Source of the DNA: an uncultured Gammaproteobacteria bacterium
Lineage (GTDB): Bacteria > Patescibacteriota > Microgenomatia > CAYQLK01
DNA length: 64,000 bases
Direction: 5' to 3'
Assembly: GCA_964349875.1 (NCBI GenBank)
Contig: CAYGIG010000001.1
Location: forward strand, 52 to 64,051
Shown here: in pieces, positions 13,513-34,934 of the stretch
How positions within the stretch are numbered: position 1 is the first letter of the stretch
Layout of the letters: every line of letters begins with the position of its first letter
Notes under the pieces: model-generated
The model's input: only the letters and a program-made list of their open reading frames with translations
What the model was told of the DNA's origin: nothing
The model's database searches: none
Program-made: the position numbers and the translations under genes

Positions 13513-15348
13513 TTAGATCTTTTGTATTGACCTTAGTTTTTTAGATAATCTGGTGAACTTCCGGCTGTAGGTCGCAAGGTCGTGAACCTTACCCGAAGCA
13601 TCCAATTCTTTCAACTGATGTGTAATTGTATCCAAATTTGCTTTTAATGCAAGCGTGCAAAGCTGAACCGCTGACTTTTCCAAGGAGACATTATAACCAT
13701 GAGCCTCATCAATCACTTCAGAAAGATCCAATAAACACAGCTTATCAGCTCTTATGATGAGGTTTTCCGGCAAACTGTTTATAAACCTTGATTGGTCGAA
13801 ATACTCTTTTTTATCCTCGGACTTATGGAACTTGCCAGCACTTCTAAAAGGTTCATATTCAACCAAAAGTGTATAAATCTCTTTAATCTCCGAGTCCTCT
13901 ATATCTCCGATCTCCGGCCAAACGGTCAGTCCGCAAGAATAATCCCCAATCTGCAATAAGTGTGCCAAAAAGTATTCTTCCAGTCCGGATTTCTGCAAGT
14001 TCGAATTATCTAAGACTTTTTTAGCTTCGACTTCTTCGCCTCTGGAAAAGTCGCTCAGAGAATCAAGTGATCTGGATTTTGTTTTACTCATACTGCGCAT
14101 TATTACGTCCTCGCTGGTGTCCAATCGCTCAGCTAAGATCTTTACATAATGGTTTTTAACAATTTCATCACTAATTCCCGACAGCACTGGCAATAGCTCT
14201 TGTCCTATTTTTCTTTTTCCCTCGCTTGTTGTCCTATCAAAACTTCTAAATGCCCAGTCTATATAGTAGTCATATATTCCCTGCGCGTTTTTTATCGCCT
14301 CTTTCCACCCAGCCAAGTTAGTTTTTACCATCTCATCAGGATCTTTTACTCCTGACAAGGTAACCACTTTAACTACCAAACCGACGCTTTCTGCCAACTC
14401 TATCCCTCGTCTAGAAGCTGTATCTCCCGCTGTGTCCGAATCAAAACATATCAAAACATTCTCGGTAAGTCTTTTAATTACTCTTAATTGCCCATCGGTC
14501 AAAGCCGTTCCGCCGGTTGCAACCACATTCTTGGTTCCTGCTAAATACGCAGAGACCATATCAAACTGCCCCTCGACCAGTACCACACTATTTTCTTTGG
14601 CAATGTGCTTCCGTGAAAGGTGTATTCCATACAATAAGTTCCGCTTCGAAAACATCGGCGTCTCAGGAGTGTTCACATACTTTGCCTCTTTTGGATCACT
14701 CATTAAAGTCCTTCCCGAAAATCCAGCCAACCGTTCCGCAATATCACGAATGGGAAACATCACCCTTCCGCGAAACCGATCATAAAATCCTCCCCTGTCT
14801 TTACTGACAACCAGTCCCGACATTGCAATATCGGCCTGCGAAAATCCTTTTTTTATCAGCATGTTTATTAAAGAATCCCAAGAATTCGGTGCATATCCAA
14901 GCTCAAAAGTTTTTATATCCTCGACTTTTAACCCTCTTTCCTTTAGATATTTTCGAGCTTTCTCAGCCACTGGATGTGTTAGTAATATTTTGTGATAAAA
15001 ATCTTTGGCAGCCTCATTAATCGACAACAATGTTTCTTTTTGTGTGTCTTTTTGACCTCTGAATTTCTTTTCCAGTACAATCCCAGCTCTTTTGGCTAAT
15101 TTTTCCAAAGCTTCTGGAAAATCCAATCCTTCAATTTTTTCTAAAAAAGTAAATACATCTCCGCCCTCGCCGCAGCCGAAACACTTCCACGTTCCCCTTT
15201 CAGGATTAACCATAAATGACGGAGTTTTTTCCCCGTGAAACGGACACAATCCTTTCATATTTCTGCCCGAGCTTTTTAGCTGAACATATCCCTTGATAAC
15301 TTCAGCTATATCCGTCCTATCCTTTACCTGGCTTACCTGGTCTTGCAT
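13513..15348 (-). CDS. dnaG: DNA primase DnaG
   Basis: Zinc-binding [11 protein letters not shown]...[13 protein letters not shown]. Toprim region EGQFDMVS...DSDTAGDTA. Confidence 0.95.
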
Positions 15349-15584
15349 ACCTAAAGGAATATATCACAGCAGCCCATATAACCCAAAAATTTAACGGCTT
15401 TGCAAAAGCCTTTATCAGTTGTACACTAACCTCAAGCAGTGTTTCCTTAAATAAGAATCTCTGCTGCACATTTCAATCACTAAGGAGGAATTAGAAAAAA
15501 ATCTTAACCGAGCACGAATCAGGAAGGGATGGGAATTCTAGGCAAGGAAAAAAGGTCTAGGATAAACCATAACCGACGAAGGGG

Positions 15585-15815
15585 GCACCACTTGAGCAAA
15601 GAGATCGCCCAAACGGTCGGAGGCAAACGCTTTGCAGTGCTTCTCGCACTGATTGCTGTCTTCGCTGTTTTGGCAAAGTTCCTAGGGTAGGCCAAAAACC
15701 AACAAAGGGGCACCGTTTGAGTAATAAAGAGATCGCCCAAACGGTCGGAGGCAAACGCTTTGCATGGCTCGTCGCCATCATCGCCGCTTTCGCTGTTTTC
15801 GCAACCATCGGCAGC
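15585..15815 (+). repeat. tandem duplication (2 x ~115 bp, ~80% identical) covering the start of the GC-rich ORF
   Basis: The first copy encodes a truncated N-terminus (SKEIAQTVGGKRFAVLLALIAVFAVLAKFLG then a stop). The second copy is the start of ORF 15717..16709 (MSNKEIAQTVGGKRFAWLVAIIAAFAVFATIG). Confidence 0.7.
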
Positions 15816-16709
15816 CAGTGGCGTCACGCCTCGGCTTCCGAACTCAGCCCCGCCGACAACTCGCAGACAGTGCTTATGCCGTCTACGGCTAGCACCTCTG
15901 CCGATAGCGTGAACCTTCCCGACATCCGCGGCAGCACCGATGGTGCAATCGCCACAGTCGCTAACTTCACGGAAGTCGTCGGCTCCACTGTCTCGACCGT
16001 CAACGTCCCGCTCATAGCCGAACCTGGCTTCTGGGCATTCGTTGCCGCAACCGTCGCTTTCGTCGTACTCCTACGAGTCGTCACACTTGGCACTCTCGTG
16101 GAATGCGCCGACCCTCGTTACGTCCGTCGTCAAGACCTCGGCATGTACGGTCACCGCGCGCGGAAGGGCAACAGCCCGCCCAACTCGCTCGCAGCCCGCT
16201 CGACTTGGCTTCGTACTACTGACACTTCGGGGACAAGCAAACGATCCGGGCTTAAACGTGCATCGCACGTGACTATTACCCGCGACACGCTGCTGTCCGC
16301 GAACACCACGACGACCTCGCGCAAGACGCATGCTGTCACCAGCGCGATCTTCGGTCGACTACACGCCGCCTTCATCACATTCGTCGGCGCCGTCAGAACC
16401 TCGATTTCGTATTTCCGAAGGGCCATCGCCTCAGCCGGAACGGCCATGATTTCGTCGCTCAAGCGCTTTGGAGCAGGATCCGCGTATCCGCTCATCGCAC
16501 ACAAGTCATTCGTCCGCGTCGCCAGCGCCAGTCGCACATCCGCCTTCGCGACTCACAGGCAACTCAGTAAGTCCGAATTCCTCCACCATATCAGCTTCGA
16601 CAGCAACGCCGGCAAACGCGCCGACAGCCAAAACAGTGGCTGGCTCTCGAACCTGATGAACTCGCTGTACGGAAACGGCCCTTCGCCGGCTCTCGTGCTC
16701 CGACTCTAA
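15717..16709 (+). CDS. hypothetical membrane-anchored Ser/Thr/Ala/Arg-rich protein inside a high-GC segment (TTG start)
   Basis: Longest ORF in a ~1.3 kb segment of about 60% GC. All six frames are open there. One N-terminal TM helix, then low-complexity sequence. Coding status uncertain. Confidence 0.3.
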   Translation: MSNKEIAQTVGGKRFAWLVAIIAAFAVFATIGSQWRHASASELSPADNSQTVLMPSTASTSADSVNLPDIRGSTDGAIATVANFTEVVGSTVSTVNVPLIAEPGFWAFVAATVAFVVLLRVVTLGTLVECADPRYVRRQDLGMYGHRARKGNSPPNSLAARSTWLRTTDTSGTSKRSGLKRASHVTITRDTLLSANTTTTSRKTHAVTSAIFGRLHAAFITFVGAVRTSISYFRRAIASAGTAMISSLKRFGAGSAYPLIAHKSFVRVASASRTSAFATHRQLSKSEFLHHISFDSNAGKRADSQNSGWLSNLMNSLYGNGPSPALVLRL

Positions 16710-17155
16710 GACGTCCCACTCCGTCCCCAAGAGGGAGGGTTTGCGCCTAATAAACGCGCCCGCTTGCACCTCAACCTCCTAAAAAGAGGCGTCTTACTTA
16801 CCCCAATAGTGGGAACAAAGGCTTACCAAGCACCTTGCTCAATGCTAATGGACTTCTCCATTATGCTTGGATTTGCCAGCGTTACCCGTCCCTCGGGCCC
16901 GTTTCGGATTAACCTCCGACCGGGCCCCCTTTCTTGCCCAAATCTCTCAATATTTCCCTTAATCAGCTTTATTTTTTACTTTTTACTCAACCCATACTTT
17001 CCTTTAACGATTTTACTGTGAACGCCTTTTGACGAGCGACGGCGAGGCAAGGAGCTCGACGCTAGCAAGCCAAAGAGCTGAAGTGAACAGTGAAATCAAA
17101 AAACATTGTTTCTACGAAGTAGAAAACTCCTATTAATGGAAAACGAAAACTAATT

Positions 17156-17674
17156 TTATATTTGGATTTTTGAAAAATCCGTCCTGGAAACGGCAATCTT
17201 AAACCACGATGTATATTTGTTGGGACTTCTCTCAATCTCTTTCTTCAAATCACCCATACTAATCCAAAGATAATCATGAGCCTCGTTTTTATTAAGAATC
17301 GGATTTCCTTCATAAATGCCTATAAAAATATGATCAAATTCGTGTTCAAACAGTCCCTCAAATTCCGTTTTGTAAACAAAACTATCAACCTCTCTCAATT
17401 CACATTCAATCCCCATCTCCTCCTTCAGTCTTCTTTTTGCCCCAGCTATTGTTTCTTCCCCTACTCTCGGATGTGAGCAGCAGGTATTTGTCCAGAGTCC
17501 GGCAGAATGATATTTATCTAACGCTCTTCTCTGTAATAATGTTTCACCTTTGGAATTAAATACAAAAACCGAAAACGCACGATGCAGCCTCCCAGCGCGA
17601 TGGATATCCATCTTTTCGCCAGTACCTATTTGCTTATCGTCTTTATCAACGAGAATTATTATTTCTTCCCTCAT
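17156..17674 (-). CDS. idi: isopentenyl-diphosphate delta-isomerase type 1 (Nudix fold)
   Basis: HRAFSVFVFNSKGETLLQRRALDKYHSAGLWTNTCCSHP and EHEFDHIF match IDI-1 signature regions including the catalytic Cys and Glu. Confidence 0.8.
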   Translation of the reverse strand: MREEIIILVDKDDKQIGTGEKMDIHRAGRLHRAFSVFVFNSKGETLLQRRALDKYHSAGLWTNTCCSHPRVGEETIAGAKRRLKEEMGIECELREVDSFVYKTEFEGLFEHEFDHIFIGIYEGNPILNKNEAHDYLWISMGDLKKEIERSPNKYTSWFKIAVSRTDFSKIQI

Positions 17675-18164: not shown

Positions 18165-18257
<93 letters not shown>

Positions 18258-18503: not shown

Positions 18504-18620
18504 GCTAAAAGCCATAATTGTTTCCCGCAAAGGCTTACCCGCAACATCAAACCTATACAAAAAAAATCAAATCAAAACTAGAAATAGTTGAGAGCAACCA
18601 AAAAGCCGATTTTATTCTTA
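18504..18620 (+). pseudogene. degenerate duplicate of the 5' end of nadK (~117 bp, ~85% identity to 25187..25305)
   Basis: gctaaaagccataattgtttcccgcaaaggcttacccgcaacatcaaacctatacaaaaaa... parallels the nadK start MLKAIIVSRKGLPTTSNLYKKIKSKLEIVESGQKADFIL. No complete ORF. Confidence 0.7.
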
Positions 18621-25185: not shown

Positions 25186-25956
25186 ATGCTAAAAGCCATA
25201 ATTGTTTCCCGCAAAGGCTTGCCCACCACATCAAACCTATATAAAAAAATAAAATCCAAACTTGAAATAGTTGAGAGCGGTCAAAAAGCCGACTTTATTC
25301 TTGTCTTGGGTGGCGATGGCGCAATGCTTAACGCTATTAACAAATATTACAAATTAAAAATTCCTTTTGCAGGTTTCAACTTCGGACATTTAGGCTTTTT
25401 ATTAAACGAAGCCAAGACTGGTGTTTTAGAAGAAATTCTTGCGGGAAAATTCGACACTGTCGAATCCAATCTGCTGGAAGCCAAACTTTATTCATTCCAT
25501 CAAAAATTAAAAACGGTCCTGGCTTTTAACGACTTTTATTTCGAGCGCAAAACACCCCAAACCGCCAGAATAGAAATATCAGTAAACGGCACCGTAAGAT
25601 TCGAAACCTTAGTCTGCGACGGCGTGATTGTTTCCTCGCCTGCCGGCTCCACCGCCTACAACGCATCGGCAGGAGGAAAAATACTCCCTATCGACAGCAG
25701 GCACATGGTTTTAACAGGCATTTGTCCGGCACTATTCCACAACTGGCGCAGCGCCCAACTCTCTCACAATTCAACAATTTGTCTAAATATTATCGACACC
25801 GAACTCCGTCCAGTGGTTTTTATGGCCGATGGTAGGGAAATAGCAGGAGTAACCAAAGCAGAAATAAAATACTCCAAACAGAAGGTCAAAATCCTCTTTG
25901 CTCGCTCCCAAGACTTTCGCGAAAAATTCCTCCGCCTCCAATTCTCTACTCTGTAA
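25186..25956 (+). CDS. nadK: NAD+ kinase
   Basis: GGDGAML motif (LVLGGDGAMLNAI). DGVIVSSPAGSTAYNASAGG NAD-binding segment. Confidence 0.9.
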   Translation: MLKAIIVSRKGLPTTSNLYKKIKSKLEIVESGQKADFILVLGGDGAMLNAINKYYKLKIPFAGFNFGHLGFLLNEAKTGVLEEILAGKFDTVESNLLEAKLYSFHQKLKTVLAFNDFYFERKTPQTARIEISVNGTVRFETLVCDGVIVSSPAGSTAYNASAGGKILPIDSRHMVLTGICPALFHNWRSAQLSHNSTICLNIIDTELRPVVFMADGREIAGVTKAEIKYSKQKVKILFARSQDFREKFLRLQFSTL

Positions 25957-34449: not shown

Positions 34450-34480
34450 TGTCTTTTCCTTTTTCAAGAAATTCCATTAG

Positions 34481-34934
34481 TGGAGATGGCGGGCTATGAA
34501 CCCGCGTCCGATAATAATCCGAAAAGAAACTTCTACAAGCGTAGTTAGTGTTTATAAAAATCATTCTGATCTCCAAACCCACTAACAGGCGCTGGAGGCA
34601 AAACTATCTAATTTAATTAAGAATACCCAAAATTAATTGAGTACTAATAATATCTTTTCCGCATTTCTCAAAATTAGCAAATGAGCGCTTAGACTCCAAC
34701 AAAGGTTATACCCTAAGCGGCTCCGTTGGAGAAAAACCACTTAAAGTCCTTATCGGCCTAACTTAGGCAAAAGCGTAAGCAGACGGACGAGGAGCAAACA
34801 ATCCCGCGAGGGAGTCGTTTACTTTGTCAGAAATTTTGCTGACATTTATTTTTTCTAAAAATATTTTGCGAGTTATTTAGAATCACTCGGCTTGCAGTTT
34901 TTAACGAGCTAAACCGTCGAGGCAATACATCCCC
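34481..34934 (-). ncRNA. ssrA: tmRNA (SsrA), ~454 nt, CCA not encoded
   Basis: 5' end GGGGATGTATTGCCTCGACGGTTTAG (conserved GGGG..TCGACGG). 3' tRNA-Ala-like end GGACGCGGGTTCATAGCCCGCCATCTCCA with a G3-U pair in the acceptor stem. In-frame tag candidate ...GCT CCT CGT CCG TCT GCT TAC GCT TTT GCC TAA (APRPSAYAFA, stop near 34763). smpB is 3 kb away. Confidence 0.8.

Follow-up and report, generated by a model that had tools for sequence, protein, structure and literature searches.

Mosaic surface-protein genes that recombine between strains are well known from naturally transformable bacteria, with pneumococcal pspA and pspC and neisserial porB and tbpB as examples. Signal peptides with a conserved motif mark certain protein classes, including the YSIRK, KxYKxGKxW, Tat and SipW/TasA types, for which models are available in NCBIfam. 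Genes imported from a donor of different base composition are said, after Lawrence and Ochman, to undergo a compositional decay known as amelioration. The locus described here can be compared with all of these. It is a block rich in guanine plus cytosine (GC) that lies between dnaG and idi in a 64,000-nucleotide (nt) stretch of DNA deposited as an uncultured Gammaproteobacteria bacterium (assembly GCA_964349875.1, contig CAYGIG010000001.1, positions 52 to 64,051). The whole stretch is called the window, and positions refer to it unless a contig is named. The block, or island, carries a single gene started by TTG, and it is best explained, with moderate confidence, as an old import from a high-GC donor that has been partly ameliorated and exchanged among relatives.

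Scanned 200 nt at a time, GC content is 0.385-0.41 at 15200-15599, 0.585-0.635 at 15700-16699 and 0.395 again by 17000. The GC-rich block extends from about 15560 to 16900 of the window, with GC of 0.58-0.63 against approximately 0.40 outside, and nowhere else in the 64 kb does a 300-nt segment reach 0.53. These measurements bear out the compositional jump reported in the original prediction, which was made from the sequence alone. The same prediction described the longest open reading frame (ORF) of the block as TTG-started and as encoding a membrane-anchored protein rich in Ser, Thr, Ala and Arg, and this is also correct (15717..16709, with two hydrophobic helices). Its statement that all six frames are open was too strong. 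The ORF frame alone is nearly free of stops (two in the block, with an open run of 378 codons), while the other five frames hold 7-28 stops and have open runs of 51-170 codons. A run of 378 codons is longer than that found in any of 2000 composition-preserving shuffles (99th percentile 248, maximum 361). Third codon positions are about 70% GC and 50% C in nearly every 150-nt segment of the ORF. The ratio of nonsynonymous to synonymous substitution (dN/dS) is lowest in the ORF frame, among the six, for all eight allele pairs tested (0.49-0.75), and the ORF is intact in 12 of 12 alleles (270-338 amino acids [aa]), indels notwithstanding. The gene is protein-coding and encodes a membrane protein whose signal peptide and transmembrane helix are under purifying selection; in the acidic ectodomain and the long basic tail, evolution is close to neutral. 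The gene and its parts are as follows.

15717..16709, + strand: TTG-started protein-coding gene of 330 aa, GC 0.60, GC at third codon positions (GC3) 0.70; identified from the ORF, periodicity, dN/dS and its intact state in 12 alleles.
15717..15836, + strand: signal-peptide module, residues 1-40; near-invariant columns, dN/dS 0.19, hydropathy and charge.
15837..16028, + strand: acidic, Ser/Thr-rich ectodomain, residues 41-104, net charge -6; dN/dS 0.77.
16029..16139, + strand: transmembrane helix (residues 105-127) and conserved juxtamembrane motif; hydropathy peak 2.27, dN/dS 0.23.
16140..16706, + strand: very basic, predicted cytoplasmic tail; charge, predicted local distance difference test (pLDDT) scores, dN/dS 0.73-0.91.
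16300..16470, + strand: recombinant tract of about 170 nt with 94-100% nucleotide identity to the allele type of L013 (a reference genome, see below), the rest of the gene being 50-70% identical.

The dN/dS of the gene as a whole is 0.60. Regional values were pooled over 45 allele pairs, and no region exceeds 1 (maximum 0.91, with the ectodomain at 0.77). Ala, Ser, Thr, Val, Leu and Arg are abundant in the 330-aa protein, which contains two hydrophobic helices. Its signal module consists of a basic n-region (net charge +2), a hydrophobic core at residues 15-33 and an invariant A38-S39-A40. The ectodomain is variable except for an invariant LPDIRGST motif, and its nucleotide identity is low between allele groups. 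Invariant columns in the transmembrane and juxtamembrane segment read WAFVA.TVAFVVLLRV...P.Y.RRQ, and the tail (residues 128-330, about 200 residues; net charge +21, isoelectric point 11.6) has two conserved islands, SKR.GL.RAS and GAG.AYP.IA. All of the features of a Sec-dependent type I membrane protein are present (n-region, core, A-x-A, second helix and positive-inside charge). The protein would be exported by the Sec pathway and cut after A-S-A, leaving a mature form that would span the membrane, its short variable region facing outward and its basic tail in the cytoplasm. AlphaFold2, run with an eight-sequence alignment, gave a mean pLDDT of 39, with scores above 50 in the two hydrophobic helices only and below 50 in the tail. 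No family match was obtained for the protein, the small upstream ORF described below or two relatives in Pfam, NCBIfam, PHROGs, PADLOC and PDB sequence searches, and curated signal-peptide models (NCBIfam/TIGRFAM, E-values up to 10) matched neither the ORF nor the module alone. The island gene product can be classified as an orphan family of predicted bitopic membrane proteins.

The block is found at the same place in other genomes. Contig L009 (ENA k141_621733) is 99.99% identical to the window over 20,993 nt and matches 15300-17200 exactly, including a duplication of the gene start. A block of approximately 60% GC with an intact ORF between dnaG and idi is present in 11 other sampled contexts, which represent at least seven distinct backbones of 38-44% GC. 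The intact ORFs are 54-62% GC, and the gene lies on the strand opposite to the low-GC dnaG and idi. Carriers include two reference metagenome-assembled genomes (MAGs), L013 and L014 (GC 38-41% in the genome stretches and 60-62% in the block), the JGI contigs L001, L002 and L023, and four contigs picked by idi alone (L026, L028, L030 and L032, with idi identity of 71-81% and GC of 41-44% in the flanks and 55-68% in the block). The carrier contigs are 2-660 kb long and come from JGI, ENA, NCBI and Logan samples. A block of similar GC was thus found in all relatives sampled, which refutes a recent or artefactual origin but not a foreign one.

Public gene calls at these loci include none for the island gene in L028 (1631-3275) and short antisense ORFs in L026 (1930-3659) and L032 (2361-3753). 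Each of these three contigs holds an intact TTG-started ORF of 270-330 aa. Gene callers often miss the island gene or place it on the wrong strand because of its TTG start and atypical composition. A second, smaller GC-rich patch is present in L013 at 14201-14600 (0.54-0.56 in 300-nt windows), about 3.3 kb downstream of the island.

The signal module is also found at the N-termini of otherwise unrelated proteins encoded by MAGs of Chloroflexota (Tepidiformales, Anaerolineae, Ca. Amarobacter, Dehalococcoidia and Chloroflexia), Holophagae and Planctomycetales. The matching genes are not from Actinobacteria, which the original prediction had raised as possible hosts and donors. The module-bearing MAG loci (L015-L022) are 61-69% GC. 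Protein identity over the module is 64-82% for seven of the eight MAG genes and 50% for L022, and DNA identity between the window and the six MAG genes compared is 69-78%. In the six MAG genes whose upstream sequence can be read, an in-frame stop 3-4 codons upstream forces the TTG start. The module mostly heads very large proteins (approximately 1,350 to more than 2,100 residues) with no Pfam domains, the L017 gene product having 329 residues. Codon-position composition also connects the island gene to these genes. GC at the first, second and third positions is 0.55/0.55/0.70 in the window ORF and 0.56-0.59/0.51-0.56/0.81-0.89 in the high-GC MAG module genes, as opposed to 0.48/0.37/0.38 in 35 long host ORFs, and third-position bases rank C > G > T > A in the window ORF and the high-GC MAG module genes alike. 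The codon-position composition matches that of genes from phyla of 61-69% GC, not that of the host, and the third position alone has begun to decay.

The giant proteins headed by the module (approximately 1,460 to more than 2,100 aa) are encoded in Chloroflexota and Holophagae MAGs at L016 923-5515, L018 3585-8186, L019 30-4406 and L021 from 10001. Those of L016-L019 also share the motif ELRHIADD...INSNVRGS.HT.CT. None of the giant proteins has a Pfam match, and they appear to form an uncharacterised large secreted family.

Substitutions in the island gene are directed toward the composition of the host. Among ten distinct alleles, singleton substitutions comprise 66 GC-to-AT and 29 AT-to-GC changes (p = 2e-4), while dnaG of the same genomes, used as a control, has 73 and 105, respectively. 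The implied equilibrium GC is about 0.42 versus 0.63 now, and the most divergent allele, L024, has 54% GC and a GC3 of 0.63. If GC3 decays from 0.85 to 0.70 in a two-state model with the host GC3 of 0.38 as its target, the pairwise divergence expected is about 0.43. Because this is near the observed proportion of synonymous differences (pS) between allele groups (0.41-0.47), an import in mid-amelioration is quantitatively coherent.

Comparison with the flanking genes indicates that the island has had a history of its own. Between the window and L013 or L014, the proteins encoded by rpoD, dnaG and idi are 67-91% identical, and their fourfold-degenerate sites are saturated (identity 0.22-0.39). 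In the island, fourfold-site identity to the window is 0.64 for L013 and 0.47 for L014, with the proteins just 48-57% identical. As the carriers are saturated at synonymous sites and the island is not, the import must post-date their split and have spread, or exchange must have continued. L023 has an L013-type backbone with a chimeric allele whose N-terminal half is window-like, and L026 has the backbone closest to the window by idi, yet carries an allele of the other class. Over 28 genome pairs, the Spearman correlation between allele identity and idi identity is 0.017. The alleles are mosaic and do not follow the host backbone; homologous recombination carries segments of the gene from one related genome to another. 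The earlier suggestion of a fast-evolving surface-protein cassette can be kept in part: a dN/dS of 0.60 and mosaic alleles uncoupled from the backbone agree with it, but no cassette machinery, silent copies or dN/dS above 1 were found. The module occurs just twice in the 64 kb, both times at this locus, and no inverted repeats, reverse transcriptase or recombinase are present nearby.

One 319-aa allele (P0005), which is also carried on the 660-kb L013 contig, is present on seven Logan contigs of 1.3-1.6 kb, each from a different run; six of the seven were fetched (L003-L008), and all of them stop close to the edges of the island. Short contigs that end at the island edges would be consistent with assembly breaks where one allele is common to several backbones.

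The explanation favoured here, to which moderate confidence is given as a whole, is that the block is one transcription unit (leader, TTG-started gene and structured 3' untranslated region [UTR] with terminator) of high-GC origin. Horizontal acquisition from a high-GC donor, as put forward in the original prediction, is supported by composition, by the GC-to-AT bias and by the shared module, but in a modified form, as the acquisition is not a recent event private to this genome. Several observations count against this explanation. No empty dnaG-idi junction was found among the sampled relatives (idi identity 67-95%, within this clade), so that the insertion event itself is presumed. An exhaustive HMMER profile search of 1.84 billion cluster representatives with the mature protein (signal peptide removed) returned five proteins, all of the same family, such that the mature part has no homologue outside its own family in that search. 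Six-frame comparison of the island body with the sampled donor-type loci gave no significant match in any frame, which also leaves an origin by frame-shifted reading of the sampled donor-type genes unsupported. The link to a donor therefore rests on the module of approximately 40 residues and on composition. The locus has no mobility genes, tRNA target or flanking repeats. The direction test is based on parsimony, which may inflate the count of common-to-rare base changes, and given the mirror-image bias in dnaG, part of the 66:29 skew may be methodological. Had the islet been present in the common ancestor of the synonymously saturated carriers, its GC3 should have equilibrated already; later spread or ongoing exchange is therefore needed, for which the mosaicism argues. 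No homology or confident structure stands behind any function of the protein (mean pLDDT 39). Finally, the probable Patescibacteria placement of the host stands against the labels of two MAG records, L013 (CAYOLO010000001.1) and L014 (CAYROP010000030.1), which read 'uncultured Gammaproteobacteria'.

Other explanations for the block can be weighed against the same data. The high GC could be a maintained equilibrium, produced by GC-biased gene conversion that frequent recombination at the locus drives, or by selection on the mRNA or protein, in a gene that is possibly native. This would explain why all 12 alleles are at approximately 60% GC although the neighbouring genes of the carriers are synonymously saturated, and it would fit with the demonstrably frequent recombination at the locus, the lack of a full-length donor homologue and an implied third-position equilibrium GC (0.48-0.57) that is still above the host GC3 of 0.38. 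It is nonetheless unlikely: lineage-specific changes run 66:29 toward AT while those in the dnaG control do not, L024 is down to 54% GC (GC3 0.63), the codon-position profile and C-rich third position are as in high-GC phyla, and the RNA-structure signal in the coding region is slight (mean folding z-score -0.65). An ancient balanced (trans-species) polymorphism, with allele classes older than their carriers and no horizontal exchange, has much less in its favour and is considered highly improbable. Two or more deep allele classes do exist and allele similarity is uncorrelated with host similarity, but pS between alleles (0.41-0.47) is lower than in the flanks rather than higher, the 170-nt tract is 94-100% identical between distant backbones, and GC3 is far from equilibrium.

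Doubtful also, and slightly more so than a maintained equilibrium, is a de novo or overprinted protein, in which only the signal module and GC-rich DNA were imported, the length of the ORF is owed to the scarcity of stop codons in such DNA, selection acts on the two helices alone and the rest is effectively random. The ORF has remained intact in 12 of 12 diverged alleles despite indels, there are invariant motifs outside the helices (SKR.GL.RAS and GAG.AYP.IA in the tail, and LPDIRGST), and the other five frames carry 7-28 stops. These points have to be set against an orphan protein body, a dN/dS of 0.73-0.91 outside the helices, the absence of a confidently predicted fold, a low-complexity composition rich in Ala, Ser, Thr and Arg, and the fact that shuffles of this composition reach open runs of 361 codons. 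The block might also be mainly a large structured non-coding RNA gene, high in GC as RNA genes frequently are when the genome is AT-rich, with an incidental ORF. In favour of this, distant pairs have much the same nucleotide identity at each of the three codon positions, the 3' UTR shows conservation (z = -4.5) with some compensatory pairs, and the 5' part is more stably folded than shuffled sequence (z about -2.5). Mosaic ancestry plus relaxed constraint accounts for the even identity, however, and Rfam gives no match, the mean z-score of the coding region is only -0.65, and a dN/dS of 0.19-0.23 in the two helices together with the kept reading frame indicates selection on the protein. The probability of an RNA gene is accordingly put at the very low end, a shade below that of balanced polymorphism; a large structured RNA was rejected for the coding sequence, given the slight signal in the sliding scan, and retained for the UTRs. 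An assembly chimera, one of the explanations originally offered, or a contaminating high-GC fragment joined into a low-GC contig, can be dismissed with near certainty. The compositional boundaries are sharp, and many of the gene-bearing metagenomic contigs are just 1.1-1.6 kb long and end near the block edges. However, independent contigs of 2-660 kb, taken from many samples and representing at least seven further backbones, have the same junctions and neighbours. A second contig shows no difference anywhere in the region, and the leader and 3' UTR are conserved and grade into the flanks.

Under the favoured explanation of an ameliorating import, the proposed history of the island is the following. 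The block would have entered a clade of low-GC bacteria, probably Patescibacteria (also called CPR, candidate phyla radiation), from a high-GC donor, and would now be fixed between dnaG and idi. The donor may have come from a pool of organisms (Chloroflexota-like) whose giant surface proteins bear this signal module. The carrier genomes would have diverged before the import, or before its latest sweep through the lineages. The protein would presumably act at the cell surface, for example in host-cell contact or as a phage target. A more speculative extension, to which a low probability is assigned, is that a Patescibacteria-type epibiont carries a gene from the phylum it lives on (Chloroflexota-like), keeps its export signal, uses the product at the cell-cell interface and exchanges alleles with epibiont species found alongside it, so as to keep up with hosts or phages. 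If this were true, the shared module would mark an undescribed signal, used across phyla, for the export or sorting of giant surface proteins. Literature searches returned nothing specific on transfer or association between Patescibacteria and Chloroflexota.

The neighbouring genes and the elements surrounding the island gene are as follows.

13513..15348, - strand: DnaG, from Pfam domains and homologue names.
15421..15427, + strand: candidate -10 hexamer, weak and tentative, in the conserved block GGTGTACAAT of the upstream alignment.
15482..15492, + strand: Shine-Dalgarno-like AAGGAGGAATT in the 5' leader, invariant in six of six aligned upstream regions.
15578..15690, + strand: upstream partial copy of the gene start; a separate ribosome-binding site (GAAGGGGG) precedes TTG at 15592, from which a signal-module peptide of 32 residues would run to TAG.
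16710..16894, + strand: structured, conserved 3' UTR, from folding (z = -4.5) and alignment.
16895..16935, + strand: likely intrinsic terminator, with stem GGGCCCG...CGGGCCC and then CCTTTCTT, from the fold; the hairpin is also present in L001 and L024.
17156..17674, - strand: NUDIX-type isopentenyl-diphosphate isomerase (idi), from Pfam domains and homologue names.

The candidate -10 hexamer reads TACACT in the window and TACAAT or TAAAAT in relatives; a consensus promoter scan found no sigma-70-type site upstream of the island. The leader element AAGGAGGAATT sits about 100-230 nt 5' of the start codon, and no conserved ORF lies downstream of it. It is reminiscent of the 5' stabiliser elements of Gram-positive mRNAs. 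In the 3' UTR, a core motif composed of GAGGGAGGGTT, a GCGC hairpin and CACCTCAACCTCC at 16731-16779 is followed by the hairpin CCAAGC...GCTTGG at 16826-16870. This region is kept even in the 40%-identity allele L024, and compensatory changes are found in 4 of the 32 predicted pairs. The terminator forms the 3' edge of the GC-rich block; a simple terminator scan missed its hairpin because the loop is longer than the scan allows. Nothing in Rfam reached the gathering threshold, the best permissive matches scoring 16.5 and 15 bits versus cut-offs of 39.5 and 52. In the sliding folding scan, the coding part has a mean z-score of -0.65 (versus +0.45 in the flanks) and the 5' part one of about -2.5. 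As the signal in the coding part is only slight, RNA structure does not explain the GC content. The block has no match in phage, plasmid or viral-contig collections, and a search for mobile-element hallmarks gave no Pfam, PHROGs or PADLOC match and no meaningful flanking repeats.

The start of the island gene is duplicated in tandem over approximately 115 nt, with the upstream copy truncated by a stop, as the original prediction described. An ungapped alignment of 15598-15676 with 15726-15804 gives 85% identity. Allowing a single 3-nt indel extends the copies to 15578-15690 and 15704-15819, the upstream one being closed by TAG at 15688-15690. The peptide of the upstream copy is hydrophobic. 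A 32-nt core of the repeat is found at exactly two places in the window, with none expected by chance. The inserted stretch (approximately 15547-15696) has no counterpart in L001 (the closest allele), L010, L011, L013 or L014, which identifies the second copy as the orthologous start of the gene. Both window copies read CGCTTTGCA (Phe) at a site that is CGCATCGCA (Ile) in every other allele, and so the duplication arose in this lineage. The copies are identical over the first 45 nt or so and approximately 70% identical thereafter, the extra copy having since been scrambled or partly converted. To judge from these alignments, the duplication is a secondary event private to this genome and outside the conserved design, and it leaves either a small ORF upstream or a non-functional start of the gene. 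Another repeat pair in the window (116 nt, about 90% identical) is located at 18504-18619 and 25188-25302. The latter copy is the 5' end of a NAD-kinase gene (25186..25956, +), and the former lies in the spacer between tRNA-Ser (18165-18257) and a histidine-phosphatase gene, where it forms a second stray, partial gene-start copy in this genome.

The host probably belongs among bacteria of the Patescibacteria type. The sigma factor is of short SigA architecture, with SigA chains of 368-390 residues as the best PDB matches, and the nearest named homologues of idi are from Parcubacteria/Patescibacteria. The Gammaproteobacteria labels of L013 and L014 look wrong, as these genomes have sigma factors of 402-407 aa with the short SigA architecture and idi homologues in Parcubacteria/Patescibacteria. 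A transfer-messenger RNA match at 34478-34934 (-) in the window is 457 nt long versus a 374-position model, and the gene appears to carry sizeable insertions.

The island does not reveal a new kind of genetic system, and the processes involved are known from textbooks. It provides a natural single-gene example of import from a donor of distant composition, slow amelioration and block-wise allele exchange, in a setting of poorly understood ultra-small bacteria in which surface proteins are the main candidates for host attachment. The highly conserved, TTG-started signal module that ties the island gene to giant proteins of high-GC phyla may merit a family model of its own.

With respect to known systems, the block belongs to no mobile-element class and to no described protein, RNA or signal-peptide family. 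It is similar to ameliorating islets in its sharp composition break, its donor-like codon-position profile and a flow of substitutions toward host composition that is strongest at third positions. Unlike a textbook genomic island, it consists of one gene, lacks an integrase, a tRNA target and flanking repeats, and occupies the same site in every relative sampled, and its foreign composition has outlasted the synonymous saturation of its neighbours, which calls for later spread or continuing exchange. The mature protein resembles the products of orphan genes in being confined to a few close genomes, of low complexity, without a predicted fold and weakly constrained, but the island gene differs from them in its borrowed, widely distributed signal module and its clearly non-native base composition. 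The module itself differs from YSIRK-type signals in having no match to a curated model, in always starting with TTG and in heading uncharacterised giant proteins without Pfam domains; it is like them in being an unusually conserved export module, n-region included, that is common to unrelated proteins in several phyla. Relative to pspA/pspC and porB/tbpB, to which the gene has no homology, it shows no dN/dS above 1 (maximum 0.91), a predicted exposure of only about 64 residues and a foreign composition. It resembles those genes in occupying a fixed locus, in having deep allele classes and block-wise chimeras, in the near-identical tracts found on distant backbones, and in allele trees that are decoupled from genome trees.

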